Positions 24,722 to 54,355 of a DNA stretch of 64,000 bases are shown here, piece by piece. The stretch covers positions 80,042 through 144,041 of the forward strand of contig JAHFFE010000003.1 in assembly GCA_023248155.1 (NCBI GenBank). The letters are read 5' to 3'. The position numbers and the translations under genes were made by a program. Below the pieces are notes generated by a model. It did no database searches. It was given only the letters and a program-made list of their open reading frames with translations, and had not been told where the DNA came from. Position 1 is the first letter of the stretch; each line of letters opens with the position of its first letter. The DNA is from Candidatus Omnitrophota bacterium. Its GTDB lineage: Bacteria > Omnitrophota > Gorgyraeia > 1-14-0-20-64-10.

Positions 24722-27568
24722 ATGCGGATAGTAATCTTTAACTGGCGGGATGTCCGCAATCCGCTGGCCGGCGGCGCCGAAGTGCTGATGCAGGAATCGG
24801 CGCGCCGCTGGATCGCAGAGGGGCATTCGGTTTCCTGGATCACCAGCCGTTTTCCCGGATCATCCGAACAGGAAACGATCGACGGCGTTCAGGTTTTTCG
24901 TACTGGAAATTCCCGCTCCGTCTACTGGAAAGCGGCCCGCCTGTTTAAACAAAAATTCGCCGGGCAATGCGACCTGGTCATCGATACCGTCAACACGCTT
25001 CCGTTTTTTACGCCCTGGTTTGTCAAAGAGCCAATCGTCATGCATTTCAACCAGCTGGCGCGCGAGGTCTGGTTTTACGAATGCCTCTGGCCGATGGCCG
25101 TGGTTGGGTTCATTCTGGAGCCGCTCTGGCTGAAAATCTACCGCAAGATTTATACGGTAACAATCTCGCGCAGTTCGCGGCTGGATCTGCTGCGGCTCGG
25201 ATTTGATCGGGCACAGGTGCAATTGCTGCCGATGCCGACAAAACCGTATTCGGCTCCCACGACCGATGCGCGCGCCCAAACACCAACATTTATTTATCTG
25301 GGACGGCTGAAGCGATCCAAGCGGGTTCATCATGCCATTATTGCGTTTGCCCGCGTGCATGCCCGGATTCCGAATTCGCGGCTCTGGATCGTCGGCGACG
25401 GTGACCGCTCTTACCGGACTTACCTGAAAAAAATGGTTGAACGCCTGGACCTGGGCCCCTCAGTTACTTTTTTTGGCCAAGTGCCGGAACAGAAAAAAGA
25501 ACGCCTGCTTCAGGAAGCCCACGCGCTCGTGGTTCCTTCGGTACGTGAAGGATGGGGAATCGTTGTTAATGAAGCCAACTCCAAGGGAACACCCGCTATT
25601 GTTTATCCGGTGCCGGGACTGGTCGATTCAATCGATAATCAGGTGACGGGACTGGTTTGTCGGGAACCGACTCCGCGCGCATTGGCCGATCAGATGATTG
25701 ATATGGCGGAAAACAAGGCGCTCTGGAAACGCTTGAGTACGCCCGAGAATTTTTCGAGACCGGCTGTTTCATGGGATGACACGGCCCGGAGTTATCTGCA
25801 ATTTCTCAAATACCGGATGGGCGAAAAGCCTGCGCCGGCCAGTTTCTCAAAATTGTCGATCGTCATTCCGGGCTGTCTTTGGAACGGAACGGTTCGAAGC
25901 GGAGTTCAGGAAGCAGCCCAGCTCGCGGATACGCTGCAGGGAAAGTATGAACTTCTGATCGTAGCCGATCTTTCCGATGACCGGCTGCAGTCTCTTCTGA
26001 AGCAGCGGGGAATTGCGGAAGATAAAATCCGACAGATCGCTCCGGATCGCTTCCTTGGAGAATCGTACTCGCTGGTATTGGCCGCGCGCAAGGCCTCGGG
26101 AGACATGCTGCTGTATGTAGACCCCAACGCGGATATCGCGACAGGCGAATTGCTCGGGTTGATTGAATCATGGAAAGAAACACCGACCGATCTGGTGGTC
26201 GCTTCACGGCGGCACAGTGAAGACTGGCGGCGGCGTCCCTGGTTGTGGCGATTTTTTTCCGATGCCTATCACTCGGCGGTTCGCCGGCTTTTTGGCGCGG
26301 AAATGGGCGATGTGCAGACCGGAATTAAACTGTTCCGCACCCCAATTCTCCGGCAGGTGCTGCAGCGGCTCGTGGTTAAGGAATACGCATTCGATATGGA
26401 GCTGCTGGCTGTTGCGCACCGGTCCGGATTTACAATCGCGGTTTGTCCGATCCGCGTACTGCAGGGAACGCCTCAGCGCCGGGCACATCTGCTGGATATG
26501 TTTCATCTGTTCATGGATACGCTTTCGATCTGGTACCGAATGTTCTGTTTGCGCTATTATGACCGGCCGATCATTGTCCTTCCGCCCAAGCGCACGGTTT
26601 CCATCGTAATTCCGTGCAAAGCGCCAACCCCTTACTTAACGGAATGTTTGCAGGCTTGCTCCGAACTGGATTATCCGAAAGAGTTAATTCAGATCATTGT
26701 GCTGACCGATGAACCGGCAACGCTTCCGTCTCCGCAGGCAGTTTGCGTTCCCAGCGGACCGGTCGGGCCGGGGAAGAAACGGGATATGGCGCTTGCGCAT
26801 TGCACCGGAGAGATCGTGGCATTTATTGATGATGACACCATTCCGCGGTGGGACTGGCTGCGGAACGCCATGCGCTGGTTTGAAGACGAACGGATTGGAG
26901 CGGTAGGCGGTCCGGCGCCGACGCCGGCGACCGATTCTCTGCGCCGCGCCGCCAGCGGAGCGGTTTATTCATCCTGGCTGGTCGCAGGAACGCAAAGCTA
27001 CCGCTATTTTCCGGCAGTCGGACGCTGGGTGGATGATTATCCTTCGTGTAATTTATTTATCCGAAAAGAAGTGCTGACGCAAGTGGGTGGATTCGATACG
27101 GCATTTTGGCCAGGGGAAGACACGATTCTCTGCGCCAAAATTACGCAGGATCTGAAAAAGAAAATCTGGTATGACCCGGACGCGGTGGTTTATCATCACC
27201 GCCGGGCGCTGTTCCGCGGCCACCTCTATCAGATCCAGAGGTACGCCGAGCACCGCGGTTATTTTGTGAAACGATACCCGGCGACCTCGCTGCGGGTTCC
27301 TTATTTTTTGCCGTCCTGTCTGGTCTTTTTCTTTATCTTTGGCGCTTTGCTCGCGGTGATGTTTCCGCCGTTAAGGATTACATACGCAGCGATCGTGCTG
27401 GCTTATCTGACACTCGTAATGCTCTGGGCCGCGCTAAGTCTGAATATCCGGATGGCCGCGCTGGTTTTTCTTGGAATTATTGCAAGCCATTGGGCCTATG
27501 GGATCTATTTTTTAAAAGGTCTTCTGTCAACATCTATGGCCGAGGAGTTTAAGCGTGAACCTGTCTAA
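24722..27568 (+). CDS. Tri-domain glycosyltransferase fusion (GT4 – GT2-like – GT2, C-terminal TM helices)
   Basis: N-terminus with the GT4 EGWGIVVNEANSKGTPAI (E-x7-E) motif. A middle GT2-like domain carries DMELLAVAH. The C-terminal GT2 has SIVIPC…, DDD and a hydrophobic tail. Confidence 0.75.
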   Translation: MRIVIFNWRDVRNPLAGGAEVLMQESARRWIAEGHSVSWITSRFPGSSEQETIDGVQVFRTGNSRSVYWKAARLFKQKFAGQCDLVIDTVNTLPFFTPWFVKEPIVMHFNQLAREVWFYECLWPMAVVGFILEPLWLKIYRKIYTVTISRSSRLDLLRLGFDRAQVQLLPMPTKPYSAPTTDARAQTPTFIYLGRLKRSKRVHHAIIAFARVHARIPNSRLWIVGDGDRSYRTYLKKMVERLDLGPSVTFFGQVPEQKKERLLQEAHALVVPSVREGWGIVVNEANSKGTPAIVYPVPGLVDSIDNQVTGLVCREPTPRALADQMIDMAENKALWKRLSTPENFSRPAVSWDDTARSYLQFLKYRMGEKPAPASFSKLSIVIPGCLWNGTVRSGVQEAAQLADTLQGKYELLIVADLSDDRLQSLLKQRGIAEDKIRQIAPDRFLGESYSLVLAARKASGDMLLYVDPNADIATGELLGLIESWKETPTDLVVASRRHSEDWRRRPWLWRFFSDAYHSAVRRLFGAEMGDVQTGIKLFRTPILRQVLQRLVVKEYAFDMELLAVAHRSGFTIAVCPIRVLQGTPQRRAHLLDMFHLFMDTLSIWYRMFCLRYYDRPIIVLPPKRTVSIVIPCKAPTPYLTECLQACSELDYPKELIQIIVLTDEPATLPSPQAVCVPSGPVGPGKKRDMALAHCTGEIVAFIDDDTIPRWDWLRNAMRWFEDERIGAVGGPAPTPATDSLRRAASGAVYSSWLVAGTQSYRYFPAVGRWVDDYPSCNLFIRKEVLTQVGGFDTAFWPGEDTILCAKITQDLKKKIWYDPDAVVYHHRRALFRGHLYQIQRYAEHRGYFVKRYPATSLRVPYFLPSCLVFFFIFGALLAVMFPPLRITYAAIVLAYLTLVMLWAALSLNIRMAALVFLGIIASHWAYGIYFLKGLLSTSMAEEFKREPV

Positions 27569-30500
27569 GCAAAAAGCTGTTTTCTGGATAAGCCTCGGGA
27601 TTATTTTGTTTTGGGGAATGATCGTTCTGACCTGGTTTAAGCCGGGCCATTTTATTATGGGGCCGGATCTTCATGTGCCGGTCGATATGCACCGGTGGCT
27701 GCGTCAATGCTGGGCATGGAACGACGAGTGGGGAACAGGCCAGGAATGGAGCGTCGGTTTTTCGAATCTGATTTTTTCGGCGGTCTCGGCCGCTGTTTCA
27801 CTCATGACACCGTCGCTGCTGTTCGTTCAGCGAATGCTGTTTGTCTTCTGGTTCGTTCTCCCGGGGCTGACCTGTTTTGCGCTCGCAATGGAACTGGTTC
27901 CCGATCCGAAGAAGTGGGCGTTCCGTCTGGGCATGGTCAATTTTTACATGTTCAACTTGTACCTTCAGGCGCTGTGGGGAGGGAATGAGGCGGGACTGGG
28001 CGCCTACGCGGCGCTGCCGCTAATGATGATGCTTTATCTGCGAGGTTTGCGGACGCGCCGTCTTTTGTTCCACGCGCTTCTATTGGGTCCGACGTCGCTG
28101 CTGCTTTCATCGGCAAGCATGAATATCCCATTAATGGTGGTAGTCTTCATGGCCTGCGGAATTTTTATTCTGGTCTATATCATCCGCGAACAGGTTTACC
28201 GTTCTATCTCCGAAATTTTTAGGCTTCTGATCTACACCGCCGGCGCCGCATTGCTGATGCTTTTATGCAACACATTCTGGGCGCTTCCGCAGCTGCTCGT
28301 CAATACGACAAAAATCCAGGTGCCCGCCTATTCAACCAGCATGATGGCCGAGGCCAGGGGCTGGCTCTATGGAATGAGCAGCGATACAAGCCTGGCCAAT
28401 ATTTTCCGCATGCAGGGGGACTGGACCTGGTATCAGGGGTGGTACGAACCGTACCGCAATTATGCGGCGTTCTACCGGCACAATCCCTGGATGATCGCCT
28501 TAAGCTGGTTCATTCCGGCAATCGTTCTGGTCGGCGCTTTCGTCAGCCGTCAACGGCTGAAAGCGGCGTTCATACTTTTTGCGGTGCTCGGCGTGATTCT
28601 GGGAACCGGCGTCCATGCGCCATTTGAAGCAACCTATCTCTGGCTCGTCGATCATCTTCCGTTCTTCTGGGTTTTTCGCAGTCCCTGGTTTAAGTTCACG
28701 ATTCTGACCTGCCTGGGCTATGCCTTTTTGTTTGGGGAAGGGGCCGAATATCTGGCCGGTCTCATCGGAAAAAACAGGCCGCGCCTGCTGATTTTTTCGT
28801 TCGGTGTATTGCTGGCCGCCAATATGCTGTACGCATTTCCGATCACTTTCGGAAAAATGCATCCCACGGCAGCCGAGCGGCTGAAACTAAAACCGGTTCA
28901 TATCGCCATGCCCTCGTATGAATACGACCTGGCCCGCTGGGTGAACCAGCAACCCGGTTTTTTCAGAGTTCTTTTTATGCCGCTGCGAATGAATTCCACC
29001 TCGGTCTATCCGTGGGGTCTTTCCAGTACAGCACCGGCCGCTTATCCGTTTTTGCGGAAGCCGTTCCTGTTTGATAATTGGGGATCGGCCACCGATTTCG
29101 GAAACCGGCTGACGGGTCTTTTCTGCCGGGCCGTCTATGGACCACGATCGCTGGATGCCACGCGGATCGCTCAGATGATGGGGGCGCGTTATCTGATCCA
29201 GGAGAATGATTTCGATTACGATTATTACGAAGCAACCCCCAACTATCCGTTTTTCGGTGATACGCCCGAGTTTGTGCGGCAACGGCTGGCGCAGCAGAAA
29301 GGACTTCGACTGATCCAGTCATTCGGTCCGCTGGAAATTTATGAAATCGCATCTCCGCGGAACCGATTTGAGTCCGCCTCCAAAGCGGTTGCCGTGCTGG
29401 GACCGCTGGAAAGCATGGCCGATATCGCCGATACTGATCTTCTGCAGGAAGGAAAAGCGCTTATTTTTCTGAATGGCTTGGAAGGGGAGAAAGCGCTTGA
29501 TGCGCTGGAGCGGCTCAATGAATTGGGAATGCTGGATTCCGTCGTTACCGTCGGCCTGCCCGACCCCGAACATCAGGCGCTGGCCAAAAAATGGTCGCAG
29601 AAAGCCTCGTCTGTTTTTGTTTTGCAAACCACTGAAGGTTTCAAGCCGCTGCTTGAAAAGAATCCGTCTGATCTGGTGCCGATTTCCGGAATCAGCGCGC
29701 GGTGGCTGGGCGGGCTTTCAGACGCTGAAGGGTTGGACAACGGAACGGGATGGAAGTGGGTGGAGACCAACCAGAAGGAATCGTTCGCGCATGTGGAACT
29801 GTTCAATGCGCTCGATCATCCGGTCCGCATCAATCTGGGGCTGAATATCCGCTCGTACCAGCGGATGCGGGATCTTTTTCTGTATATGAATGGGGAACTT
29901 TTCACGCCCGCACCGAGAATACTGGCCAATGATCCTCAGGAACTTTTGCTGTCGGAATATATTCTTCCGCCCGGAAAAACGAGCGTGCGGTTTTATACGC
30001 CGTATCAAACCGATCCGTATGGAAATCTTTCTGTCACCTTCGCCGTTCAGCCCGGTTCACTGCGGATCGGCCTGTTGACATACCAGGGCAGCGCCTGGAT
30101 TCCCAACGCAGGATCGTATCAGGTGGTCGTGCAGGCGATTCCTATTCCGGAAACAGTCAGCGGTTCTTTGGAAATGCGCGTCGGTGATGATTCTGTCGTA
30201 TTGCAGGCCGACCCGGAAAATAAGCGCTACGTCGCCAACGACCTTTCATTAAAAGAGGGGATTGTTCCGATTTCTCTCATGCAAAAAACCGTGGGAGGCC
30301 ATTACAGGATCCGCTTCTTCCGCACAAGTTCCGCCGCCGGTCAGGCCGTTGAACCAATGCCGGTACTGAAGGAACTCAAATCGACCCCGGTCCATCATGA
30401 GGTTGCTTTTGAAAATCAGGCGCCGGCGATTTTCATTTTCCATGATTCCTATTTTCCGCTCTGGCAGGCGGCCGACAAAACCACCGGCGAAAAATACAGC

Positions 30501-30680
30501 CGTCATTTTATCGTCAACGGTTTTGCGAACGGATTTCTGGTCGAACGACCGGGAAAGCATCAGGTAGAGATTTCCTACCAGGTTCAGCAGCGGTTTGAGG
30601 TCGGGTGGCGCGTGGCGCTGGCGACAACAATTTTTTGTCTGATCGGCGCCTTGTTTCTAATAAAAAGGACAAATAAATAA
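27555..30680 (+). CDS. Large GT-C-fold membrane glycosyltransferase, AftD/YfhO-like (paralog 1 of 3)
   Basis: 1041 aa. It has an N-terminal polytopic domain with conserved QGDWTWYQGWYEPYRNYAAFY and HAPFE…LPFFWVFRSPWFKF segments. A large beta-rich extracytoplasmic domain follows. The C-terminal motif is SYFPLW…HFIVNGFANGF followed by one TM helix. These features are shared with the other two paralogs. Confidence 0.55.
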   Translation: MNLSKQKAVFWISLGIILFWGMIVLTWFKPGHFIMGPDLHVPVDMHRWLRQCWAWNDEWGTGQEWSVGFSNLIFSAVSAAVSLMTPSLLFVQRMLFVFWFVLPGLTCFALAMELVPDPKKWAFRLGMVNFYMFNLYLQALWGGNEAGLGAYAALPLMMMLYLRGLRTRRLLFHALLLGPTSLLLSSASMNIPLMVVVFMACGIFILVYIIREQVYRSISEIFRLLIYTAGAALLMLLCNTFWALPQLLVNTTKIQVPAYSTSMMAEARGWLYGMSSDTSLANIFRMQGDWTWYQGWYEPYRNYAAFYRHNPWMIALSWFIPAIVLVGAFVSRQRLKAAFILFAVLGVILGTGVHAPFEATYLWLVDHLPFFWVFRSPWFKFTILTCLGYAFLFGEGAEYLAGLIGKNRPRLLIFSFGVLLAANMLYAFPITFGKMHPTAAERLKLKPVHIAMPSYEYDLARWVNQQPGFFRVLFMPLRMNSTSVYPWGLSSTAPAAYPFLRKPFLFDNWGSATDFGNRLTGLFCRAVYGPRSLDATRIAQMMGARYLIQENDFDYDYYEATPNYPFFGDTPEFVRQRLAQQKGLRLIQSFGPLEIYEIASPRNRFESASKAVAVLGPLESMADIADTDLLQEGKALIFLNGLEGEKALDALERLNELGMLDSVVTVGLPDPEHQALAKKWSQKASSVFVLQTTEGFKPLLEKNPSDLVPISGISARWLGGLSDAEGLDNGTGWKWVETNQKESFAHVELFNALDHPVRINLGLNIRSYQRMRDLFLYMNGELFTPAPRILANDPQELLLSEYILPPGKTSVRFYTPYQTDPYGNLSVTFAVQPGSLRIGLLTYQGSAWIPNAGSYQVVVQAIPIPETVSGSLEMRVGDDSVVLQADPENKRYVANDLSLKEGIVPISLMQKTVGGHYRIRFFRTSSAAGQAVEPMPVLKELKSTPVHHEVAFENQAPAIFIFHDSYFPLWQAADKTTGEKYSRHFIVNGFANGFLVERPGKHQVEISYQVQQRFEVGWRVALATTIFCLIGALFLIKRTNK

Positions 30681-30682: not shown

Positions 30683-32197
30683 ATGAACTGGCTGATCGGA
30701 ATCGCCGTAACAGGATTAAGCTTCCTTCTGCAGGTAAGGCCGCGCCTGATCAAAAAAGCGTTTGGCGTTGATTCATGGCGGCATTTGGATGAAGCCGATT
30801 ATATCCGCCGGTTCCGCCATCTTCCGCGCGGAATGGCGGAACGGTATTTAATCGATAAACCGTCTGATTATCCGCCGTTTTTGCGGATTGTTCTGGCGCT
30901 GGTCCCCAAAAAAATGCTGGAACAATTTGAGTGGATGGTTGCCCCGATCTTCGACGCGTGCCATATTCTGTTGTTATTCGGAGCCGTTTTGATCTGGACC
31001 GGGCGGGTGGAAATGGCTGTCTGCGCGCAGCTGACGTACGCGCTCAGTCCATTGGTGATCATGGAGAATTCCAATTTGACGACGCGCTCGTTCGCGTCGC
31101 TTCTGTTCACGCTGGGCTGGCTGCCGCTGATGCTTTATCGGGCCGGGCAGGGTACCGAATGGCTGGCCGCCGGTATTTTCTTTTTGGCTGTTCTTTTTCT
31201 GACGCACCGGCTGGCATTGCAGGCGCTCTTTTTTCTTTCGATTGCCTGGTCGATTTTTGAAAAAACCTGGTTCTTTGCCGGAGCCATTTCAACGGCGATT
31301 TTTGCGGCGATGATTTTCTCGGGCGGATTTTATCTGAAAGTGCTCTGGGGCCAGCTGACGATGCTGAACTATTGGAGAATCAACAGCAAGAACCGGTTTG
31401 CCCATCAGATCCGCGGCCTGCCGAAATCCAGCGAACAGGAACCGGATATTGTTTTTCGCATCTATCAGACAATTCGCAAAGCGCCGTTCCTCGCGATTAT
31501 GGGAGCGAATCCATTTATGGTCTTTCTGCTGCCATGGCTTTTTCATCCGGAATGGCTTCATCAGGATCTATTTGGAATTCCGGCCATGGTATTGTCGCAA
31601 TTTTTCTTCTGGGCCTGCGCGCTTTGGGTGATCGGTCTGATCATCCGGCAATGGGAACCGGTTCGTTTCATGGGAGAAGGGGAACGCTACCTGGAATATG
31701 CCTGTTTTCCAACAGCCGTTCTCACAGCTGTTTTACTGGCCAGACAATCGTCAGAACCCGGATTCCTGTTATGGATCGCGGCCTTCGCGGTTGTGGCGAT
31801 CGCCGGCGGATTGATTCCGGGGATATTCCTGCAGCAACAGGTGATCGTTCAAGATACGGAACGTTCTGTAACGCCGGTGCTGCAAAAGGTTTTCGATGAA
31901 TTGAATCGGATGCCGGACGAAGTCAGGATTTTCACCATTCCGCTTTATCTGGCCAGCGCCACGGTTCATTTCACGAAAGATCGTGTGAAGGTTTTGACGA
32001 CCGACAGTTCGTATGCCCATTTGACTGATCTGAAAGATATTCTGCCCGTTTTAAAAATTCCTCTGTCCGAAGTAAGCCAACGGTACCGGTTGACCCATAT
32101 GTTAATCAGTGAACGGTATGTAACGCTAAGCGAACTCGGACTTTCAGAAAAACAGCTGATCTTACGCTCAGGTCAGTTTTGTCTTCTCACGCTATGA
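30683..32197 (+). CDS. Polytopic membrane protein of unknown function (possible glycan polymerase/GT-C)
   Basis: 504 aa with many hydrophobic helices and no recognisable catalytic motif. Confidence 0.4.
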   Translation: MNWLIGIAVTGLSFLLQVRPRLIKKAFGVDSWRHLDEADYIRRFRHLPRGMAERYLIDKPSDYPPFLRIVLALVPKKMLEQFEWMVAPIFDACHILLLFGAVLIWTGRVEMAVCAQLTYALSPLVIMENSNLTTRSFASLLFTLGWLPLMLYRAGQGTEWLAAGIFFLAVLFLTHRLALQALFFLSIAWSIFEKTWFFAGAISTAIFAAMIFSGGFYLKVLWGQLTMLNYWRINSKNRFAHQIRGLPKSSEQEPDIVFRIYQTIRKAPFLAIMGANPFMVFLLPWLFHPEWLHQDLFGIPAMVLSQFFFWACALWVIGLIIRQWEPVRFMGEGERYLEYACFPTAVLTAVLLARQSSEPGFLLWIAAFAVVAIAGGLIPGIFLQQQVIVQDTERSVTPVLQKVFDELNRMPDEVRIFTIPLYLASATVHFTKDRVKVLTTDSSYAHLTDLKDILPVLKIPLSEVSQRYRLTHMLISERYVTLSELGLSEKQLILRSGQFCLLTL

Positions 32198-35329: not shown

Positions 35330-36556
35330 ATGAAGCGTTTTATCTTGGGCGGGCTGTTCCTGATCGCAATACTGTTATCGGTCCAGGCAGCCGCACGGAT
35401 CGTGACTCCTGATTTTTCGCCGTCGGACAAACGGATTGATCTTTCCCGTGAATCGGATACCGCTCTGCTGGGATCCGACTGGGATATTCGTCCCGTTCCA
35501 AAATGGCGCGGCGTCGTGGAAGTCTTTGACCGCGGAAGCCCTGCCGTTATTCCAATTGAACTGCCTTCGGCAAATTCCTGGATGTTCCGTTTCAAACTCC
35601 TTTTCCTTAAACCGGACGCCAAAGTCCGTGTTTCTTTTAACGGAGAACCTCTGGGAACCTGGGAACCCAAACAGGTCGGGCAGGCTGAGAAATTCCAGGT
35701 TTTATTGCCTGCAACAGCGGTCAAGCCAGGGATTAATCAGATTGAGTTCACGCCGGCTGGAACTCCGGCTTCGGTGATTTATGAACAGGTCCGCCTGCTC
35801 AATTTCCGGTCAAAACTATGGAAACATCATCTCTATCTGATTCCCGCGTCCGAGCAAAGCAAGCCGGGGTTCCGGCCGGTTGTTTTCGCCGGTATTTTTG
35901 CGGCTGCCGCGCTGGGCGCTCTACTGCTCTGGTTTTTAACGGCGGGACTGGTCAGCATCATCGGCGCGTGGCAATTTTCCGGTGTCTTTGTAAAGCAATC
36001 GGCCGGATGGGTATTCGTCGCCGCCGTCGCTGCGACTCTCGGATATCTGCCGATTCTGAGCTCCTATCAATTGATTGGATCAGCGCTGGGTTACTGGGCA
36101 ATGATTACACTGATCTGGATCACAGCACAATTGCCGTTTTTTCTGGCGGCTGTCCTGCGTCGTATCAGCCAAATCATTCTAACGGGAAGCCAGCTCATTG
36201 ATGCCTACGGACCCGAAGGCCTGAATGCGCTTCAGCGGCTCGGGCGAATGATTTTCTGGTTTTTGAAACTGCTGCTCATTCTGATTTACCATCTGATTTA
36301 CCGCTTGCTCGTTCAAATCGTTCGCCTGTTCATTTGGGTTGTCCGCTGGATATGGAGAAACCAGCACCCATTCGGATATCTGAAGATGGCCGGCATTTTT
36401 CTCGCGGTTGCGCTGATCAGCCCCATCTTTAAATGGACTGCTTTTCATGACTCGATGTCGCACGCGGCAGGGGTCTGTGTGCTGATTGCCATGACCAAGG
36501 AAGCCCTTCGGTCGCTGAAAGCAGATTCCTCGGACAATCCGTCCGCGGTTCAATGA
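35330..36556 (+). CDS. Membrane partner protein of GT-C paralog 2 (N-terminal anchor, ~150-aa extracytoplasmic domain, C-terminal multi-TM region)
   Basis: 408 aa. It shares architecture and local motifs (…VSFNGEPLGTW versus …ISVNGHPW) with the ORF at 53114-54355, which follows GT-C paralog 3. Confidence 0.5.
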   Translation: MKRFILGGLFLIAILLSVQAAARIVTPDFSPSDKRIDLSRESDTALLGSDWDIRPVPKWRGVVEVFDRGSPAVIPIELPSANSWMFRFKLLFLKPDAKVRVSFNGEPLGTWEPKQVGQAEKFQVLLPATAVKPGINQIEFTPAGTPASVIYEQVRLLNFRSKLWKHHLYLIPASEQSKPGFRPVVFAGIFAAAALGALLLWFLTAGLVSIIGAWQFSGVFVKQSAGWVFVAAVAATLGYLPILSSYQLIGSALGYWAMITLIWITAQLPFFLAAVLRRISQIILTGSQLIDAYGPEGLNALQRLGRMIFWFLKLLLILIYHLIYRLLVQIVRLFIWVVRWIWRNQHPFGYLKMAGIFLAVALISPIFKWTAFHDSMSHAAGVCVLIAMTKEALRSLKADSSDNPSAVQ

Positions 36557-37623
36557 AATCTTCCACCGGACAATACTTTATAACGCTCGACCATGTCAGG
36601 GCTTTGGCGCTCTTCATGGTATTTGCATGGCATTTTACGCATGGCGGCCATGGTTCACCGGTGCCCTATAGTTATACGCCCTCTCTATTTCCGCTTGCGC
36701 TGCTCGATGAAGGCTATACGGGCGTCTCTCTTTTTATGACACTCAGCGGTTATCTATTCGCCAAACTTCTGGATGGCAAGCAGATTAAATACGGCGCGTT
36801 CCTCTGGAATCGGGCGATTCGCCTGCTGCCGCTGTTGATCGTCGTTATTATAATGAAGGGTATTTTTTTGTTTCTAAAAGGGGAGAGCATCGCTTCCTAC
36901 GTCGTATCGATCGGAACGGGAATCATCTTGCCCACGCTTCCGAATGGGGGATGGAGTATCACCACTGAATTTCATTACTATCTGTTATTGCCGATCTTCC
37001 TTTGGATGGTCAGAAAATCCCGCTTCTTGCCGCTCGCTCTGATTGGCGCTGCGATGGCAGTCCGGTTCGCCATCTTTCACTGGCACGGGGAAGTGCAAAC
37101 GTTCGCTTACTGGACAATCGCCGGCCGGATCGACCAGTTCGCGCTGGGAATGCTGGTCTTTCAATTCCGATCTTTTTTTTCGCGGCGCCATCTTTTGGCG
37201 ATCGCCACGCTCTCTCTGTTTTTTGTATTTTACGGGTGGTTCGATCGGCAGGGTGGTTTCTATCATCATCCTTCGTATCCGTCAACCAGCCCAATCTGGG
37301 TTTTTTTGCTGACGCTGGAAGGACTTGCCTACGCGATAGCGATTGCCTGGTATGACAGCTCTTTTACGCCTTCCTCCGATGGTATTTCCGGTTTTATCGC
37401 CAAGATCGGGACGTATACCTACTCGCTCTACCTTCTGCATTTCTTCGTGGTGTTCGACATGGCGAGATTTGTGCACCGGCATATTATGGATATTTCCAAC
37501 TTCTATTGGGCGGTCGCCTGGTCGGCCGTTTGCTTTATTCTGATTATGCCGCTGGGATATCTCAGCTTCCGTTTTATCGAATCACCGTTTTTCAAATTAA
37601 GAACCTCTTATGTCGTCAAATAA
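36553..37623 (+). CDS. Acyltransferase family 3 (OatA-like) membrane O-acyltransferase
   Basis: LDHVRALALFMVFAWHF… with ~10 TM helices, typical of Acyl_transf_3. Confidence 0.75.
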   Translation: MKSSTGQYFITLDHVRALALFMVFAWHFTHGGHGSPVPYSYTPSLFPLALLDEGYTGVSLFMTLSGYLFAKLLDGKQIKYGAFLWNRAIRLLPLLIVVIIMKGIFLFLKGESIASYVVSIGTGIILPTLPNGGWSITTEFHYYLLLPIFLWMVRKSRFLPLALIGAAMAVRFAIFHWHGEVQTFAYWTIAGRIDQFALGMLVFQFRSFFSRRHLLAIATLSLFFVFYGWFDRQGGFYHHPSYPSTSPIWVFLLTLEGLAYAIAIAWYDSSFTPSSDGISGFIAKIGTYTYSLYLLHFFVVFDMARFVHRHIMDISNFYWAVAWSAVCFILIMPLGYLSFRFIESPFFKLRTSYVVK

Positions 37624-38584
37624 AGTCAGCTGTATTCTTTGCGGCGGCAATAATTTCGAAAGAGTGCTGGCCATTTCCAAACCGGACGATCCGTTTCTGC
37701 GCGTTTTAACTCCGGATGGAAACGCCTGGATTGCGCGCTGCACCGGATGCGGCCTGAAAAGAACCGATCCATTTCCTGAAACTGCGAAAATTCCTCTCTT
37801 TTATCCTGAAGAAAGCTATCCGTGCTACCGCGAAGATAAAAACTCCGGACAGTTCAAGCGGACCATCCAGCGCTGGGTAGTTCGCTCAGCGGCGCCGGCC
37901 GGCTGGAATCCTTTCAACTGGCTGCGGAAACTTCTGCTGTTGCCGGTACGCCGGCGGGTGGGCGGTGTTCCAAAAACCAGATTGCAGGAACCCGTACTCG
38001 ATGCCGGCTGCGGCGACGGCACTTTTCTGGATCTGCTTAAAGAGGCTGGCTGGAAGGTTGAAGGCTTTGAGATGAGCCCTAAAGCGGCGGAAGCGGCCCG
38101 ACAACGCGGGTTACCGGTACAAACAGGAACGATTGAATCAATCCAATTCCCGGAGGGACGGTTTGCCGCCGTTCGGTTTTGGCACGTAGTCGAACATCTG
38201 CCCAATCCGGGTGCGGCGCTTGAAAAAGCAAAGCGCTGGATCCGGCCGGGCGGGGAACTGATCCTCGGAATTCCGAATGCCAACTCATTTTATGCCCGCC
38301 TTTTCGGTGCCCGCTGGAGCGCATGGGAACTCCCCCGGCATCTCTACCATTTTACTCCGGAAACAATCCGGCGCCTGCTTGAAAAAAACGGTTTTCATTC
38401 CATCCGGGTGATCCATTGTTCGGTCGGAACCGGCGTCTCGAGCCTCGGAGAAAAAGAAAGCCGTATCCTTCCTCTAAGGGTATTGGGACTTGCCGCCGAT
38501 TTTTTCTTGGACCTTCTGGGCCAGGGCGATTCATTGGAAGTCCGTGCAGTTCGACTAAATGACAAGGGGAATACCCGAACATGA
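37610..38584 (+). CDS. Class I SAM-dependent methyltransferase with N-terminal zinc-ribbon
   Basis: CILCGG…CTGCG ribbon, then SAM motif I VLDAGCGDGTF and a post-I acidic motif. Confidence 0.75.
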   Translation: MSSNKVSCILCGGNNFERVLAISKPDDPFLRVLTPDGNAWIARCTGCGLKRTDPFPETAKIPLFYPEESYPCYREDKNSGQFKRTIQRWVVRSAAPAGWNPFNWLRKLLLLPVRRRVGGVPKTRLQEPVLDAGCGDGTFLDLLKEAGWKVEGFEMSPKAAEAARQRGLPVQTGTIESIQFPEGRFAAVRFWHVVEHLPNPGAALEKAKRWIRPGGELILGIPNANSFYARLFGARWSAWELPRHLYHFTPETIRRLLEKNGFHSIRVIHCSVGTGVSSLGEKESRILPLRVLGLAADFFLDLLGQGDSLEVRAVRLNDKGNTRT

Positions 38585-39261
38585 AGCTCTCAGTGATTGT
38601 ACCCGTTTACAATGAACGTAAAACCATACTGACGGCAATTTCTCGGATCAAAAAAACCCCGTTCGAGAAGGAAATTATCATTGTCGATGATGCTTCGACG
38701 GACGGAACCTACGAACAGCTGGAAACCTTGTCGTCGGACTCCGAGGTAGTCATCCTTCGCCATCCGCGAAACAGGGGAAAGGGCGCGGCGCTTCAAACAG
38801 GTTTCGCCAAGGCAACCGGAGAGATTATCATCACGCAGGATGCGGACCTGGAGTATTGGCCTGAGGATTATCTGACGCTGATCGACTTGATAGACAGAGA
38901 TGCGGCCGATGTTGTCTACGGATCGCGATTTATCGGCCGGCACAGGGTATTTCTGTTTACGCACCGGATGGGCAATTTTTTCCTGAATATGCTGGCAAAT
39001 ATTTTATTCAACACGACGCTGACCGATCTTGAAACTGGATTAAAAGCCTTCCGCCGGGAAGTGCTGACGGGTTTCAATCTTAAATCAAACGATTTCAGCA
39101 TTGAAGTTGAGCTGACTGCTAAGGTCTGCCGGGGCGGTTATCGCCTGTACGAAGTTCCCATTCTCTATACAGGCCGAACTTACGCTGAAGGCAAGAAGCT
39201 GACCTGGCGTGACGGATTTCCGGCTCTCTGGGCGTTATTTCGATTCCGTTTTTGCGATTAA
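38581..39261 (+). CDS. GT2-family glycosyltransferase
   Basis: LSVIVPVYNE, VDDASTDGT and a QDADLE motif. Confidence 0.8.
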   Translation: MKLSVIVPVYNERKTILTAISRIKKTPFEKEIIIVDDASTDGTYEQLETLSSDSEVVILRHPRNRGKGAALQTGFAKATGEIIITQDADLEYWPEDYLTLIDLIDRDAADVVYGSRFIGRHRVFLFTHRMGNFFLNMLANILFNTTLTDLETGLKAFRREVLTGFNLKSNDFSIEVELTAKVCRGGYRLYEVPILYTGRTYAEGKKLTWRDGFPALWALFRFRFCD

Positions 39262-39340
39262 CGGATCACCCAAAAACTGACTTTCAAGAGCCGTTTTAAT
39301 GGGTTATACTCAATCTTTAACCCAGAGGCTGACTTCCCCC

Positions 39341-41131
39341 ATGTTCATCTTAGGAATTCATACCGGACACAACGCGACCGTCGCTTTGATGACAGACGGC
39401 ACGATAATTGCCTGCGCCAGCGAGGAGCGTTTTACCGGGAAAAAAAACTATCAGGGGTATCCCGCCAAGTCGATCGAATGGGTTTTGCGCTTCGGAAACA
39501 TTTCTTCCGCAGATCTGGATGAAGTAGCGCTGATCGGCTCTTTCGGCGCTCCGGTCTACGTTGGAGAAGAACCGCGCGAAAAACCGGTATTGATCCGTCT
39601 GATGGCTCTGCTCTGGAAACCGGCCGGGTGGGTCCGCAAAAGTTTTGATTCGCTGGCTTACCGGTTTTCCGGCATTCGTCCGATCGGGCTCTGGTTCTAC
39701 AACCTCTCCACCGATATCGTCGGAACCGTCGTCGCTGCCCAGGAACGCAAGGATATCGCCCAGAAACTGGGAATTTCTCAAGACCGCGTAAAACTGTATG
39801 AGCATCACTCCTGCCACGCCTATACGGCCGCCTGGGCCTCGCCTTATTCGGGACAGGACCAGCTGGTTCTCACGCTCGATGGTGAGGGCGATAAGTTGTG
39901 CGCGACCGTGAATGTTTTTCGCAATGGCCGGCTGGACCGCATCTCATCGACGCCGCTGGGAAATTCGATCGGCCAGGTTTACCGGAATTTGACCCGGTAC
40001 CTGGGCATGAAAGAGGGCGAACATGAATACAAGGTCATGGGCCTGGCCCCTTACGCGAAGCCGGAGAATGTCGACCGCGTTTACAAGAAAATTGAGAAAT
40101 TAGTCTGGCTTGACCCGAAGAACCCTCTCAAGCACCGGGGACTGATTGATACTCACCAGTCGTACCGATTTATGCGCGAGAAACTGGAACGATGCCGCTT
40201 TGACGATATCGCCGGTGCGTTTCAACGGCTGGTCGAGGAACTGCTTTGCGCCTGGGTGAAAGAAGCGGTGCGCCACACCGGCATTCGAACGCTCGCCGTA
40301 AGCGGCGGCGTATTCATGAATGTGAAGGCCAATCAGAAAATCGCGGAATTGCCCGAGGTCGACCGCCTTTTCGCGACACCGACCTGCGGCGACGAATCCA
40401 ACCAGATCGGCGCGGGATATCAGGCCTATCTTGGATTGTGCCGGCAGCGGGGAATTCATCCTGAAATACCGCCGTTCGACACGCTCTACTGGGGCCCGGA
40501 ATTTACCGATCAGGAAATAGCGGATTTTCTGGAGAAAGGAAACTATTCCCGGCGCTATCATGTTGAGCATGTTCCGGAAATCGAACAGCGAATGGCGCAG
40601 ATACTGGCAAAAGGCGGCGTGCTTGCCCGTCTATCGGGGCGAATGGAGTGGGGAGCCCGCTCTCTCGGGAACCGTTCGATTCTGGCACATCCGTCGGACC
40701 CCGACACGATCCGCATCATCAACGAATATATCAAGAACCGGGACTTCTGGATGCCGTTCGCGCCGTCGATACTCGCGGAACGGGCGGCCGATTATGTGGT
40801 TAATCCAAAGGGGATTCCGGCGCGGTTCATGGCCGTTACATTCGATTCTACGCCGCTGGCGCGCCGCGAATTAAAAGCGGCAATGCATCCGTACGACTTT
40901 ACGCTTCGCCCGCAGCTGGTCGACAGCCAAATGAATCCCGGTTATCACCGAATGATCCGGGAGTTTGAAAAACTGACCGGGATCGGAGCGGTACTCAACA
41001 CCTCTTTTAATTTGCATGGGGAACCGGTGGTGCTCGGTCCGGCCGAAGCGTTGAAGGCATTTGAAGAGTCCGGATTACCCCATTTGGCCATGGGCCACTA
41101 CCTTATTTCCAAAGCTCAGCCCAAGCTTTAA
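39341..41131 (+). CDS. Carbamoyltransferase (NodU/CmcH family)
   Basis: MFILGIHTGHNATVAL… matches the carbamoyltransferase N-terminal (ASKHA-like) domain, and the C-terminal YrdC-like region follows. ~597 aa from the internal ATG. Confidence 0.75.
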   Translation: MFILGIHTGHNATVALMTDGTIIACASEERFTGKKNYQGYPAKSIEWVLRFGNISSADLDEVALIGSFGAPVYVGEEPREKPVLIRLMALLWKPAGWVRKSFDSLAYRFSGIRPIGLWFYNLSTDIVGTVVAAQERKDIAQKLGISQDRVKLYEHHSCHAYTAAWASPYSGQDQLVLTLDGEGDKLCATVNVFRNGRLDRISSTPLGNSIGQVYRNLTRYLGMKEGEHEYKVMGLAPYAKPENVDRVYKKIEKLVWLDPKNPLKHRGLIDTHQSYRFMREKLERCRFDDIAGAFQRLVEELLCAWVKEAVRHTGIRTLAVSGGVFMNVKANQKIAELPEVDRLFATPTCGDESNQIGAGYQAYLGLCRQRGIHPEIPPFDTLYWGPEFTDQEIADFLEKGNYSRRYHVEHVPEIEQRMAQILAKGGVLARLSGRMEWGARSLGNRSILAHPSDPDTIRIINEYIKNRDFWMPFAPSILAERAADYVVNPKGIPARFMAVTFDSTPLARRELKAAMHPYDFTLRPQLVDSQMNPGYHRMIREFEKLTGIGAVLNTSFNLHGEPVVLGPAEALKAFEESGLPHLAMGHYLISKAQPKL

Positions 41132-46118: not shown

Positions 46119-47984
46119 GTGTGCGGCATTTGCGGAATCTTCGATCCCGATAAGATCAGCGACTCCTCAATTTCCTCTTTAATCCGGATGCGCGACCGGC
46201 TGCGCCTCCGCGGTCCCGATGATGAAGGGCTCTACCGCGATGAATCCGTCGCGCTGGGAATCCGCCGCTTAAGCGTGATTGATCTTAAAACCGGCCGTCA
46301 GCCGATTGCCAACGAAGATGACTCGGTCTGGGTGGTTCTCAACGGCGAAATCTACAATTACCGGGAACTGCGCCGCGATCTGGAACAAAAAGGCCACCGG
46401 TTCCGCACGCAGTCCGACACCGAAGTACTGGTCCATCTCTACGAAGAATCGGGAGAACGGTTGGTCGAATCGCTTCGCGGCATGTTCGCGTTTGCGCTTT
46501 GGGACAAACGCAAAAAAATGCTGATGCTGGCCCGCGACCGGTTCGGCATCAAACCTCTTTATTACGCGCAGCAGGGAAGCCGGCTGATTTTTTCTTCCGA
46601 ATTGCGCTCGCTGCTGCAGCATCCTGAAATTTCCCGGGAAACCGATCCGGATGCCGTTGATCTTTATCTGACGACCGGCTATATTCCATCGCCGCTTTCA
46701 ATCATCCGCGGAATTCAAAAAGTTCCGCCGGCAACGGTACTGACGGCCACCGCGCAAAAAATCGAACTTAAAAAATACTGGGCTCCCTCATTGCCGCAAC
46801 CGGATCTGAAATTGGATATTCCGGAACTCCAACAGCAGTTGAGCCGGCATCTGGCCGATTCGGTTGCTCTGCATCTGCGCAGCGACGTTCCAGTCGGCGT
46901 ATTGTTAAGCGGCGGACTCGATTCTTCGCTGATTCTTTCCGAAGTGGTGAAAGCATCCCAAAAACAGGTGACCGCGTTTACGATCGGCTTTGAAGAAGCC
47001 AGCTTCGACGAAACCGCGGCCGCCGCGCAGATTGCGCGCCATTTCGGGGTAGACCACCAGATTGAAACGATCGGAACCCGCGAACAGCTCGACCGCATTC
47101 CTGAAATCCTCGGCGCCTGCGATGAACCTTTGGCCGATTCGTCGGTAATCCCCACCTGGTTTTTAAGCCGGCTGGCCAAACGATCGGTCACCGTGGCGTT
47201 AAGCGGAGACGGCGGAGATGAGCTGTTCGGCGGATACCCCACCTATGCGGCACACCGGATCGCGCAGCGATTGGGTATTTTACCGCAACCGTTCTGGGCC
47301 GCGGCCCAATGGGCAGCGAACCGGCTGCCGGTATCGGATAAAAATTTCAGTTTTGATTTTATCGCCGGACAATTTTTACGCGGAGCGGGCCAGCCGCTGG
47401 TTCAGCGGCATTTCAGCTGGATGGGAATTTTTTCGGCGGACGAAAAAACAGCCTTAACAGGATCGGCGGGAGGGGCTTCAACCGCTTGGATTAAGAAACA
47501 ATCGGAAGAGCTGGCCGCATTTACTTTATCCGATCCGGCAGATGCCGCCGCCGGGCTCGATCAAAAGACTTATCTGCCGGATGACTTGCTGTTTAAAACC
47601 GACCGGCTCAGCATGCAGCACAGCCTGGAGCTGCGCGTTCCGCTGCTGGATCATCCGCTGGCTGAATTTGCCGGGACCATTCCGTCCCTGTTAAAAATCC
47701 AGGGAAGTTCCACGAAAATTTTGTTTCGCAAACTATTGGAAGAACGCATTCCAGGTTCGATTGCGCGTCATCCAAAAAAAGGATTCGGAGCGCCGGTGGC
47801 TGCCTGGCTGCGCGGGCCGCTGAAAGAATGGTCGGCCGATACGCTGGAAACCGCGCTGCACTCCAATAAATACGGGTGGAACAAAACCTATGTGCGAACA
47901 CTGCTGAAAGAACATGCGCAGGGCCGCCGCAACCATGCGCGGCGAATCTGGGCGCTGCTGGCGCTGGAGCAATGGCAATCATGA
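46119..47984 (+). CDS. Asparagine synthase-family glutamine amidotransferase (AsnB-like)
   Basis: N-terminal nucleophile (M)CGICGIF, and the synthetase-domain PP-loop SGGLDSS. GTG start. Confidence 0.85.
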   Translation: MCGICGIFDPDKISDSSISSLIRMRDRLRLRGPDDEGLYRDESVALGIRRLSVIDLKTGRQPIANEDDSVWVVLNGEIYNYRELRRDLEQKGHRFRTQSDTEVLVHLYEESGERLVESLRGMFAFALWDKRKKMLMLARDRFGIKPLYYAQQGSRLIFSSELRSLLQHPEISRETDPDAVDLYLTTGYIPSPLSIIRGIQKVPPATVLTATAQKIELKKYWAPSLPQPDLKLDIPELQQQLSRHLADSVALHLRSDVPVGVLLSGGLDSSLILSEVVKASQKQVTAFTIGFEEASFDETAAAAQIARHFGVDHQIETIGTREQLDRIPEILGACDEPLADSSVIPTWFLSRLAKRSVTVALSGDGGDELFGGYPTYAAHRIAQRLGILPQPFWAAAQWAANRLPVSDKNFSFDFIAGQFLRGAGQPLVQRHFSWMGIFSADEKTALTGSAGGASTAWIKKQSEELAAFTLSDPADAAAGLDQKTYLPDDLLFKTDRLSMQHSLELRVPLLDHPLAEFAGTIPSLLKIQGSSTKILFRKLLEERIPGSIARHPKKGFGAPVAAWLRGPLKEWSADTLETALHSNKYGWNKTYVRTLLKEHAQGRRNHARRIWALLALEQWQS

Positions 47985-48715
47985 GTGACGCGCGCAACAT
48001 CCAAAATGAGCAGGATCATTTCGATCAGGCTGCGCTTCGGTACCGATCTTCCTGGTGGGGGCAGAAAACGGCCGCGGGGCAGGTTCGTTTGCGCAAGCGG
48101 TATGCCCGGATTAATTCCGCGCTCGATCAAGCCGGCGCGAAAATAATTCTGGAGATCGGCTGCGGTTCCGGAATCCTGACCGAGGGAATCAGCCGGCCCG
48201 GGCGCCGGATATGGGCGCTCGATCTTTCGCAGGAGCTGCTGAGAATTGCGCGGGGGCGGCCGCTTTCCAATACGCTCTGGCTTCGTTCACTGGCCGACCG
48301 GCTGCCGTTTCCGGATCAATCATTCGACGCCGTCGTCGGAGACGGGATCCTGCACCACATTATTCCATTGGAGCCGGTGCTGGCTGACTTAAAGCGGGTT
48401 TTAAAACCATCCGGGTCCGGTTTCTTTTTCGAGCCGAACATGGCCAATCCGCAAATCTTCCTGGAACGAAAGATCGAGTGGATCCGGCGGCTGCATCAAA
48501 CGCCGGATGAAACCGCTTTTTTACGAGGTTCCATTCGAGCTCGACTTTTGAGATACTGGAAGCAGGTATCCGTCGAGCCGTTTGACTTTTTACACCCGTC
48601 TATTCCTCAGCCGCTGATCGGCATCGCGGAATCGCTCGGCGGAACACTGGAGCATTGTCCGGGAGTCCGGGAATTGGCCGGTTCTCTTCAAATTCAATTT
48701 AAGGAATCACGATGA
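47981..48715 (+). CDS. Class I SAM-dependent methyltransferase
   Basis: SAM motif I ILEIGCGSGIL and motif II FDAVVGDGILHH. The ATG overlaps the asnB-like stop (ATGA). Confidence 0.75.
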   Translation: MSDARNIQNEQDHFDQAALRYRSSWWGQKTAAGQVRLRKRYARINSALDQAGAKIILEIGCGSGILTEGISRPGRRIWALDLSQELLRIARGRPLSNTLWLRSLADRLPFPDQSFDAVVGDGILHHIIPLEPVLADLKRVLKPSGSGFFFEPNMANPQIFLERKIEWIRRLHQTPDETAFLRGSIRARLLRYWKQVSVEPFDFLHPSIPQPLIGIAESLGGTLEHCPGVRELAGSLQIQFKESR

Positions 48716-53117: not shown

Positions 53118-54355
53118 CTTTAAATCGAATACGTATAACAGTGATTGCGCTCATTGGCTGGCTGCTGCTGCAATGGACTGTTTCGTTCACCTTTAATCCG
53201 CAAGAGTTCAGCCTTGATCTGAGTATGATATCCAACCAGTCTCATCTGAAAGAAAACTGGAAAATTATCCCATCGCTCGCTTTCAAGGGAGTTATGGATG
53301 TTTCTGTTTCGCAGGCCCCCGGCGCGATTGATTTTTCCTTAAAAGAAGCGGACACACAGTATGTCCGGATTAAGGCCCGCCTTTTGGATCCAAAACAGGA
53401 ATTATCCATTTCCGTAAATGGACATCCTTGGAAAAATCTGCGCATCGGCCGAAAACCGGGCGTCCAGAAATGGTCGGGAACCGTTCCACCCGACATGCTC
53501 AACCAGGGCAAGAACCGGATTTTTTTTCAGTCGAGCACGCCGGCGCCGATCTTTATTGAAAAAGTCAGCATCCGGAATTATCGCTCCGATCCGGACATCT
53601 CCCGGTTCTTTATCGGGCTGGATCAGTCATTCCGCGGAAAACGATGGCTCTCCATCCAGTGGAATTCTTTTCCGTGGCTGCTGATATTGGCGCTGTTCCT
53701 TTGCGGCGTGGAACTCATTACAACCTACTTCTGGAACCATATTTACCGCGTACGAAAAGAAGTTTCGACCCAGCAAATTATCTGGACCGGGTTCATAGTA
53801 CCGCTTTTCCTATTTTTTGTTTTTATCTGCATTTCCTCGTTTACGCCCTATCTGGTTCTTCTGACAATGCCGACCTACTGGATGATCTGGGGGGCAGGGA
53901 TAGTCGCCGTTCATCTGATCTGCGCTTTGATAGGAATGATCCGCCGCTGGCTGGAACAGCTGGCTTTTTTCCTGGAGCAATCGTTCCTATCATCATCCAA
54001 GGTTTTTTCAAGCCGCCTCCATCGTTGGGCAGGATCGCTGCTTTTTCTCGGAAAATGGCTGTTTAAACGCCTTAAGCTGCTCGTTCAAAAAATCACACTC
54101 AATCCCCCGGGGGTCTACCGGATCTACGCGGGCAGTATGATTTTTGCCGCGGCCTGTCTGATTTTTCAGGCGCTTTTCTATCTTCTTCTGGTGGCTGATC
54201 CCGGAAAAATCGTGGACGCGCACGGAGCCTATCCGTTCCTGCGAAAAACCGCGGAAATGGTCGCCGACCTGGGAACGCTGCTGCTTCCGATTCTTGTTTT
54301 TACCAGTTTTCTCTCAAGAAATCGCCCTCAGTCCGATAAAAATTCGCTACAATAG
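53114..54355 (+). CDS. Membrane partner protein of GT-C paralog 3 (paralog of 35330-36556)
   Basis: 413 aa with the same architecture as the partner of paralog 2. Its extracytoplasmic domain contains …SISVNGHPWKNLRIG…. Confidence 0.5.
   Translation: MTLNRIRITVIALIGWLLLQWTVSFTFNPQEFSLDLSMISNQSHLKENWKIIPSLAFKGVMDVSVSQAPGAIDFSLKEADTQYVRIKARLLDPKQELSISVNGHPWKNLRIGRKPGVQKWSGTVPPDMLNQGKNRIFFQSSTPAPIFIEKVSIRNYRSDPDISRFFIGLDQSFRGKRWLSIQWNSFPWLLILALFLCGVELITTYFWNHIYRVRKEVSTQQIIWTGFIVPLFLFFVFICISSFTPYLVLLTMPTYWMIWGAGIVAVHLICALIGMIRRWLEQLAFFLEQSFLSSSKVFSSRLHRWAGSLLFLGKWLFKRLKLLVQKITLNPPGVYRIYAGSMIFAAACLIFQALFYLLLVADPGKIVDAHGAYPFLRKTAEMVADLGTLLLPILVFTSFLSRNRPQSDKNSLQ

Follow-up and report, generated by a model that had tools for sequence, protein, structure and literature searches.

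The question raised by this locus is what is transferred, and onto what, by three giant membrane proteins encoded in one gene cluster of an uncultured bacterium, two of which are followed directly by a further membrane protein of about 410 residues. The window, meaning the whole stretch of DNA analysed, comprises 64,000 nt of contig JAHFFE010000003.1 (assembly GCA_023248155.1, positions 80,042-144,041 of the forward strand) from a Candidatus Omnitrophota bacterium, and its genes were scanned against the Pfam and NCBIfam hidden Markov model (HMM) libraries. The giant proteins, here termed P1, P2 and P3, fall in the branch of GT-C glycosyltransferases to which mycobacterial AftD belongs. The reading considered reasonably probable is that they form three periplasmic glycosylation modules in the style of the Gtr and Arn systems, which would decorate a glycan of the Wzx/Wzy type, with the smaller partners acting as acceptor-binding subunits. 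P1-P3 are of a known enzyme type, and the modules vary an established pathway in their layout; what is new is the partner. The genes at the centre of this reading are as follows.

27555-30680, + strand: P1, AftD-like GT-C, 1041 residues
30683-32197, + strand: X504, polytopic protein of an unnamed family, 504 residues
32194-35328, + strand: P2, AftD-like GT-C, 1044 residues (the listed open reading frame, from TTG at 32179, has 1049)
35330-36556, + strand: partner A, 408 residues, with a signal peptide or anchor, a periplasmic beta-sandwich (about residues 60-160) and about five transmembrane (TM) helices
49689-53117, + strand: P3, AftD-like GT-C, 1142 residues
53114-54355, + strand: partner B, 413 residues, with an N-terminal anchor, a beta-sandwich and about five TM helices

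The three giant glycosyltransferases

P1 and P2 are similar over their full length (BLASTP E 2e-86, 27% identity), P3 matches P2 at E 5e-55 and P1 at E 1e-57, and identities across the trio are 27-29%. The original prediction of three paralogs of 1041-1142 residues at 27555, 32179 and 49689 is borne out by these matches and by the open reading frames found there, with the refinement that P2 is likely to start at ATG 32194, where it overlaps the stop of the 504-residue gene by ATGA and where the resulting length of 1044 residues agrees with the ENA gene call. The motifs quoted in that prediction are found in the paralogs, except that P3 reads QATWDWY in place of QGDW[TS]WY, and its word 'triplicated' holds for the number of genes and not for a recent origin, since each of the three has a separate ortholog in related metagenome contigs and the trio therefore consists of old paralogs. 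The orthologs of P1 and P2 in one such locus (L002) are 48% and 43% identical, and those of P2 and P3 in two others (L020 and L023) are 80-81% identical, the P3 ortholog of L023 (80%) lying inside a conserved module. P1 is built from a polytopic N-terminal domain, a periplasmic soluble domain with beta-sandwiches and one C-terminal TM helix.

Assignment to the AftD branch, as proposed from the sequence, was reached by HMM, by profile search of the PDB and by fold comparison. P2 matches the Pfam family PF11847 (GT-C_AftD, formerly DUF3367) over residues 236-593, at 31.1 bits against a gathering threshold of 26 (E 7.8e-8). A GT-C profile of 12 sequences, the three paralogs and nine homologs, was compared with the whole PDB and gave mycobacterial AftD (reference entries 6W98, 6WBX and 6WBY) as its sole match, at E 3e-7, in three collinear stretches that include the soluble GT-C domain and the C-terminal W...NG..N.W motif with its TM segment. 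An AlphaFold2 model of P2 (predicted local distance difference test, pLDDT, 79.5; predicted template modelling score, pTM, 0.72) had AftD as its best fold match by a wide margin (Foldseek E 3e-21, TM-score 0.56) and shows a GT-C fold with the domain order of AftD, namely a TM domain, the soluble GT-C domain, beta-sandwiches of the carbohydrate-binding module (CBM) type and a C-terminal TM helix. The label first given to these proteins, 'AftD/YfhO-like', thus stands in its first part; the second applies at the superfamily level only, as none of P1-P3 matched the YfhO family PF09586 at E<=0.1 in Pfam.

Residues conserved across the family are, in P2 numbering, D41, N137, R289, H357, R378, W485, D560 and N1001, and because all of them are kept in P1-P3, the three proteins are, on sequence grounds, probably active enzymes. 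Conservation in 140 cluster representatives was 99% for D41, 99% for N137, 100% for R378 and 96% for D560. D41 of P2 sits directly after the first TM helix, and P1 and P3 also have Asp there; in AftD, D41 lies in the first periplasmic loop and is essential (bioRxiv 10.1101/2019.12.22.885152).

The second-best fold matches of the P2 model were STT3, PglB and PMT, which bear on the alternative that the acceptors of the GT-Cs are proteins (S-layer, pilin or Ser/Thr-rich envelope proteins, for example) and not a polysaccharide, in the manner of streptococcal PgfS/GT-C or of PMT/STT3-type enzymes. This would also suit the glycosyltransferase family 2 (GT2) enzyme encoded at 54361, which matches PgfS at E 3e-36 in addition to ArnC, and the abundance of the GT-C clade in Patescibacteria, which lack lipopolysaccharide; protein glycosylation is nevertheless regarded as very improbable.

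A second alternative follows from the CBM-like beta-sandwiches, of which models and fold comparison place several in P1-P3. AftD, the closest characterised relative, acts on long branched arabinan, and its CBMs are spaced for long glycans (bioRxiv 10.1101/2019.12.22.885152). The GT-Cs could accordingly be chain builders like AftD and Emb, using lipid-monophosphate sugars directly to elongate or branch a polymer in the periplasm, while the partners would influence chain length or hand over the product; the presence in this one operon of three donor synthases and as many as five polytopic candidates for transferases is in keeping with such a role. The cytoplasmic GT2/GT4 set, the WcaJ-type initiator and the Wzy_C protein of the operon, however, suffice for a conventional repeat-unit pathway. 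Pfam scans of the window genes, moreover, gave no UbiA-type phosphoribosyltransferase and no DprE1/E2-like match, so that arabinofuranose chemistry is unsupported and a dedicated pentofuranose donor pathway was not found. Chain building is therefore judged unlikely, and decoration of a separately made glycan remains the preferred reading of the three enzymes.

The clade to which P1-P3 belong is large. A word-index search gave only nine relatives and suggested that it was rare, which was overturned by an exhaustive profile search that returned 12,959 cluster representatives at E<=1e-3 (clusters at 50% identity), 3,136 of them at E<=1e-30 and more than 150, mostly of 950-1200 residues, at E<1e-149. 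Among GTDB representatives, clade members occur in Omnitrophota, in many Patescibacteria metagenome-assembled genomes (MAGs) and in MAGs labelled uncultured Gammaproteobacteria; the copies often stand two or three in tandem among other polytopic proteins and GT2 genes. In two Patescibacteria MAGs, two or three AftD-like genes are arranged head to tail (L014, 9950-18371; L009, 9239-13899). Two further Patescibacteria loci (L004, 35-5443; L007, 3779-9661) encode proteins of 1802 and 1960 residues, in which an AftD-like GT-C is preceded, in the same chain, by an additional N-terminal region of about 750-900 residues that contains several TM helices.

The partner protein

The two partner genes are closely joined to the GT-C genes before them. 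Partner A begins one base after the stop of P2 (TAG-c-ATG, with GGAGGA just upstream) and partner B starts within the stop of P3 (ATGA), so that the overlap of stop and start that had been reported for both pairs holds for the second pair only. Similarity between partners A and B (BLASTP E 5e-17, 30% identity) is confined to the N-terminal 140 residues or so, and no similarity between their TM halves was detected by BLAST; the periplasmic domain is the only part conserved across the three partner types. That a paralogous protein of about 410 residues follows the second and third GT-C is upheld by the match between the N-terminal domains, and the 504-residue polytopic protein after P1 is, as had been stated, unrelated to it as far as sequence searches show.

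Neither partner belongs to a Pfam, NCBIfam or PDB family, and a profile of the partner family, for which a word-index search gave six sequences, had no PDB match at E<=10. Marginal sequence matches were to DUF7383 for partner B (E 0.0012, weak and below the Pfam gathering threshold), to a CBM-like family (E 0.038) and, in one homolog, to Pfam BcsB (E 0.1), and the partner is weakly linked to the beta-sandwich of the GT-C itself (hhalign probability 38%). In the AlphaFold2 model the beta domain has seven strands at pLDDT 60-80 and resembles CBM35, CBM6 and the carbohydrate-binding domains of BcsB (Foldseek E 6e-5 to 1e-3, for a model of low confidence).

Eight occurrences of the partner were found, two in the window, two in L020 and one each in L002, L021, L022 and L023. 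In every case other than L002, where a small methyltransferase gene lies between, the partner gene is immediately 3' of a giant GT-C gene. In L022 and L023 the orthologs of partner B come after those of P3, and in one other case the partner stands behind another kind of GT-C, a YfhO-like protein of 929 residues, which matches the C-terminus of YfhO at E 3.9e-5 (below gathering) and is a distant relative of P1-P3 (hhalign 90%). The linkage of partner and GT-C expected elsewhere was thus observed at each occurrence, these occurrences representing only about four related genomes. There were no observed instances of a partner fused to a GT-C among the 150 best GT-C representatives searched with the partner HMM. 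When the window is compared with a sister genome, identity is 69-81% for the GT-Cs and partners and 93-94% for the adjacent GT2 and DegT proteins. A carbamoyltransferase gene stands directly after the partner A ortholog in L020 and L021.

The partner, an accessory not described before, has a narrow distribution. The favoured interpretation is that it is an acceptor-binding subunit, comparable to BcsB, which would dock on its own GT-C through the fast-evolving helices; both its physical association with the GT-C and its role are put forward here on the strength of gene order and domain content. A competing interpretation is that the partner is the missing flippase, its C-terminal TM bundle moving the undecaprenyl phosphate (Und-P) sugar for the adjacent GT-C in place of GtrA, ArnE/F or MATE, with the beta domain as an accessory. 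This is consistent with the lack of a recognisable small flippase gene in the 38-gene operon, with the position of partner B between P3 and the ArnC-like synthase, and with the small 4-TM gene that occupies the place of the partner, directly after the AftD-like gene, in some loci of Patescibacteria (L006, 12990-13388; L012, 12993-13424). However, the TM half is the least conserved part of the partner and differs between A and B by BLAST, the partner matches no transporter family, the 4-TM proteins of Patescibacteria match no GtrA model, and flipping could instead be performed by the 430-residue 11-TM protein encoded at 21120 or by X504. A flippase function of the partner is therefore considered improbable. 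The 4-TM proteins themselves had been candidates for GtrA flippases and, with no match, are not so called.

Candidate donor synthases, operon and proposed pathway

The reading of the partner as an acceptor-binding subunit belongs to a pathway for which further genes of the operon would supply the lipid-linked sugars and the glycan.

21120-22412, + strand: 11-TM protein of 430 residues, candidate Wzx/MOP-type flippase by its TM profile only (about 11 helices)
22405-23160, + strand: GT2, 251 residues, candidate polyprenyl-phosphate sugar synthase (Pfam Glycos_transf_2; best NCBIfam matches ArnC and PgfS)
38581-39261, + strand: GT2, 226 residues, candidate polyprenyl-phosphate sugar synthase of the DPM1/PpgS/AglJ type (Pfam Glycos_transf_2; NCBIfam)
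54361-55308, + strand: ArnC/GtrB-type undecaprenyl-phosphate glycosyltransferase, 315 residues (NF007986, ArnC)
55295-56491, + strand: sugar aminotransferase of the DegT/ArnB family (Pfam DegT_DnrJ_EryC1, E 2.9e-93), in the same position in L022 and L023
56448-58286, + strand: u612, polytopic short AftD-like relative of 612 residues (by hhalign)
61314-62717, + strand: WcaJ-type initiating phosphoglycosyltransferase (TIGR03023, 434.5 bits against a cut-off of 410.75; Pfam Bac_transf)
62665-63936, + strand: Wzy_C-family protein (Pfam Wzy_C)

The three GT2 genes of the DPM1/ArnC/PpgS type strengthen the original prediction of lipid-carrier-dependent periplasmic glycosylation. The description of that step as unusual was overstated, given that the three-component pathway is widespread in Gram-negative bacteria (PMC11127046, PMC8035078), that the GT-C clade is large and that tandem copies are common. 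The GT2 at 54361, directly after partner B, matches NF007986 (ArnC) over its full length at E 5.8e-56, a score that, like its PgfS match, is under the equivalog cut-off; it has two C-terminal TM helices (235-253 and 268-286) and is 93% identical to the protein in the same position in L023. The five best NCBIfam matches of the GT2 at 38581 are AglJ, PpgS, dolichyl-phosphate hexose transferase, ArnC and PgfS, all under their equivalog cut-offs, as are the best matches of the GT2 at 22405. The GT2 at 22405 would pair with P1, that at 38581 with P2 and that at 54361 with P3.

The P3 module, consisting of an epimerase, P3, the partner, the GT2, the DegT aminotransferase and u612, is kept in L022 and L023. 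Its last member, u612, aligns with positions 304-549 of the GT-C family (hhalign probability 87%, E 3.9e-6), a span that takes in the last TM helices, the HxP...FR motif and the soluble domain; u612 is without the CBM region. In the Patescibacteria loci L004 and L007 the gene immediately 3' of a giant AftD-like gene encodes a homolog of u612, and in L022 and L023 such a homolog comes after the P3 module; by its sequence similarity u612 is a candidate for a fourth GT-C of the locus.

The proposed pathway builds on observed homology, fold, conserved residues and a gene order that is itself conserved between loci, from which we infer the donor lipid, the pairing of GT2 with GT-C and the acceptor. 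The WcaJ-type transferase would start a repeat unit on Und-P, and the cytoplasmic GT2/GT4 enzymes of the operon would extend it before export; because the operon is marked by a WcaJ-type initiator and a Wzy_C protein, the glycan is taken to be linked through undecaprenyl diphosphate. In parallel, the GT2 enzymes at 22405, 38581 and 54361 would load single, probably modified, sugars onto Und-P, and these donors would be flipped, after which each GT-C would, at the periplasmic side of the membrane, pass its own sugar to the glycan. The active site would be formed by the invariant Asp of the first loop (D41) together with the HxP...FR(S) region, and the CBM35-like beta-sandwiches of the GT-C would hold the acceptor. 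Partners A and B would each serve one GT-C, with about five fast-evolving helices docking on the cognate enzyme and the CBM-like beta-sandwich binding or positioning the acceptor polymer, as BcsB does for BcsA.

Several observations weigh against this reading. With regard to the enzymes, P1 and P3 had no match of their own in the Pfam scan and PF11847 was matched individually by only 3 of the 12 aligned clade members, for which reason the clade is, as judged from its sequences, peripheral to that family. At the level of residues, the N-terminal TM domain does not align significantly with AftD, and D41 of P2 is only presumed to be the counterpart of the essential D41 of AftD. No GtrA/GtcA, SMR (ArnE/F) or MATE flippase was matched by Pfam or NCBIfam among the operon genes. 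With regard to the partner, the AlphaFold2 model, made from six sequences, is poor (pLDDT 55, pTM 0.29), and the CBM assignment depends on about 90 residues at pLDDT 60-80. P1 has no partner of this type, the partner HMM found none in 16 other GTDB loci with clade members and a pattern scan of the JGI metagenomes gave nothing. The absence from those 16 loci and from the JGI scan indicates that the partner is not a general requirement of the clade enzymes.

X504, the polytopic protein after P1, has no Pfam, NCBIfam or PDB match. It had been considered as a diverged partner or a GT-C homolog, but on sequence this was given up, as it had no hhalign match to the GT-C family and no library match. 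It is 64% identical to its ortholog in L002, and so more conserved than the GT-Cs, and its family is widespread, being present in 32 JGI metagenome loci (L024-L055). A homolog of the UXS/ArnA-C-like decarboxylase of UDP-glucuronic acid (UDP-GlcA) lies near X504 in half of these loci (16/32), mostly immediately downstream, and DegT and dehydratase-like genes stand just upstream of it in about 9-11 others. An AftD-like gene is near in only about 8 of the 32, a loose association. X504 may have a role like that of ArnT, as a hitherto undescribed transferase of a pentose or an amino sugar. A more far-reaching proposal is that the partner founds a new class of GT-C accessory subunit, a CBM-bearing member of an obligate heterodimer that presents the acceptor or flips the Und-P-sugar, and that X504 is a further undescribed transferase, for the sugar derived from the UDP-GlcA decarboxylase. 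This is held as doubtful; if true, the GT-Cs of the clade would be two-subunit machines whose specificity is partly set by an exchangeable partner.

The surrounding operon, as given by the open reading frame list, comprises 38 close-packed genes, all on the + strand, which fill the rest of the window from about 12.8 kb on (about 51 kb), without intergenic room for a small flippase gene, and from its gene content the locus is a large surface-polysaccharide operon. Sugar-nucleotide genes assigned by Pfam and NCBIfam include two dehydrogenases of the UDP-glucose/GDP-mannose type, a nucleotidyltransferase, several epimerases or dehydratases of the short-chain dehydrogenase/reductase (SDR) type, two DegT aminotransferases and, at 44389, a UXS/ArnA-C-like SDR. 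The same scans gave many GT2 and GT4 enzymes, one of them a GT4-GT2 fusion of 948 residues, and a set of modifiers consisting of a B12-radical SAM protein, a carbamoyltransferase, an AsnB-type amidotransferase, a GNAT protein, methyltransferases and Acyl_transf_3. The 430-residue protein at 21120 had no family match in the Pfam and NCBIfam scans and has a homolog in L002. Since genes for a carbamoyltransferase (39299-41131), an AsnB-type amidotransferase (46119-47984) and an Acyl_transf_3 O-acyltransferase (36553-37623) are in the operon, the glycan is, by this gene content, probably carbamoylated, amidated (as a uronamide) and O-acylated. The B12-binding radical SAM protein (23182-24711; best match HpnJ-like, E 1.6e-49, far under the cut-off), homologs of which recur in many X504 loci, suggests that a sugar undergoes an uncommon C-methylation or rearrangement.

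Upstream of the operon, Pfam identified housekeeping genes and a homolog of LptD, from which the organism is taken to be diderm, and the nearest named relatives of the window proteins are from Omnitrophota. Two neighbouring GGDEF diguanylate cyclases, one with a GAF domain, are encoded at 5030-7695, just upstream of lptD. Between lptD and the polysaccharide operon lies an island of low GC content (10000-12800; 0.42 against about 0.54), with an open reading frame for a retropepsin-like aspartyl protease of 122 residues (10389-10757; RVP, E 4e-5) and the remnant of an IS1/IS240-like DDE transposase (11925-12752). An insertion at the edge of the operon may have left this island as a scar. No tRNA genes were found in the window.

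Significance and comparison with known systems

AftD is known experimentally only from Actinobacteria, as an enzyme of cell-wall arabinan, and in published surveys its homologs are described within Actinobacteria only. The relatives reported here form a very large clade, which at 50% identity comprises about 13,000 clusters and is spread over uncultured lineages, both diderm and Patescibacteria, and the setting of a Gtr/Arn-style module would give a concrete function to many giant membrane proteins now annotated as hypothetical. The partner raises the question of whether GT-Cs recruit separate carbohydrate-binding subunits, as cellulose synthase does with BcsB, and that of a flippase substitute where a GtrA, SMR or MATE gene was not found. 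Practical reach is limited: the organism is uncultured, and the partner occurs only in a small number of related genomes.

P1-P3 share with AftD an N-terminal GT-C domain of about 10-11 TM helices, a periplasmic soluble domain, several beta-sandwiches of the CBM type and re-entry into the membrane at the C-terminus after W...NG..N.W, and they are close in length to the corynebacterial form of about 1070 residues. In contrast, their identity to AftD is only 13-17%, and AftD has a TM13-16 module that binds acyl carrier protein, whereas by TM profile and model P1-P3 stop 5-25 residues past their single C-terminal TM helix and are without it. Their host is diderm and non-actinobacterial, and in place of the genes of the decaprenyl-phospho-arabinose pathway, which were not found here, there are GT2-type synthases of lipid-phosphate sugars. 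YfhO (PF09586) has a similar plan of polytopic N-terminus, large extracytoplasmic domain and C-terminal TM helix.

For the partner, the nearest comparison is BcsB, a membrane-anchored periplasmic protein with carbohydrate-binding beta-sandwiches, the gene of which directly follows that of the membrane glycosyltransferase it serves. In BcsB, two carbohydrate-binding/flavodoxin-like repeats are combined with a single TM helix, and the enzyme served is a GT-A; the partner described here combines a single beta domain with about five TM helices, and its neighbour is a GT-C. Solved BcsB chains have about 650-700 residues, and the likeness of the partner to them is that of one domain of a low-confidence model, with no homology detected at the sequence level by the partner profile against the PDB.

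A close counterpart of the locus as a whole is three-component extracytoplasmic glycosylation, in which a GT2 charges Und-P with one sugar and a GT-C transfers it outside the cytoplasm (PMC11127046, PMC8035078). The GtrA/B/C, ArnC-ArnE/F-ArnT and CsbB-GtcA-YfhO systems and the GT136 pentofuranose system of Citrobacter have the same logic and gene linkage as the P1-P3 locus. The GT-Cs of the GT136 system and Emb also carry CBMs (PMC11127046), and the ArnC-like GT2, DegT and UXS/ArnA-like genes of the operon parallel the Arn pathway. The P1-P3 locus differs in having no recognisable GtrA, SMR or MATE flippase in its operon, in GT-Cs that belong to the AftD type and are roughly double GtrC, ArnT or GT136 in size, in the CBM-plus-TM partner of about 410 residues encoded by the adjacent gene, and in the presence of three or four modules within one operon.

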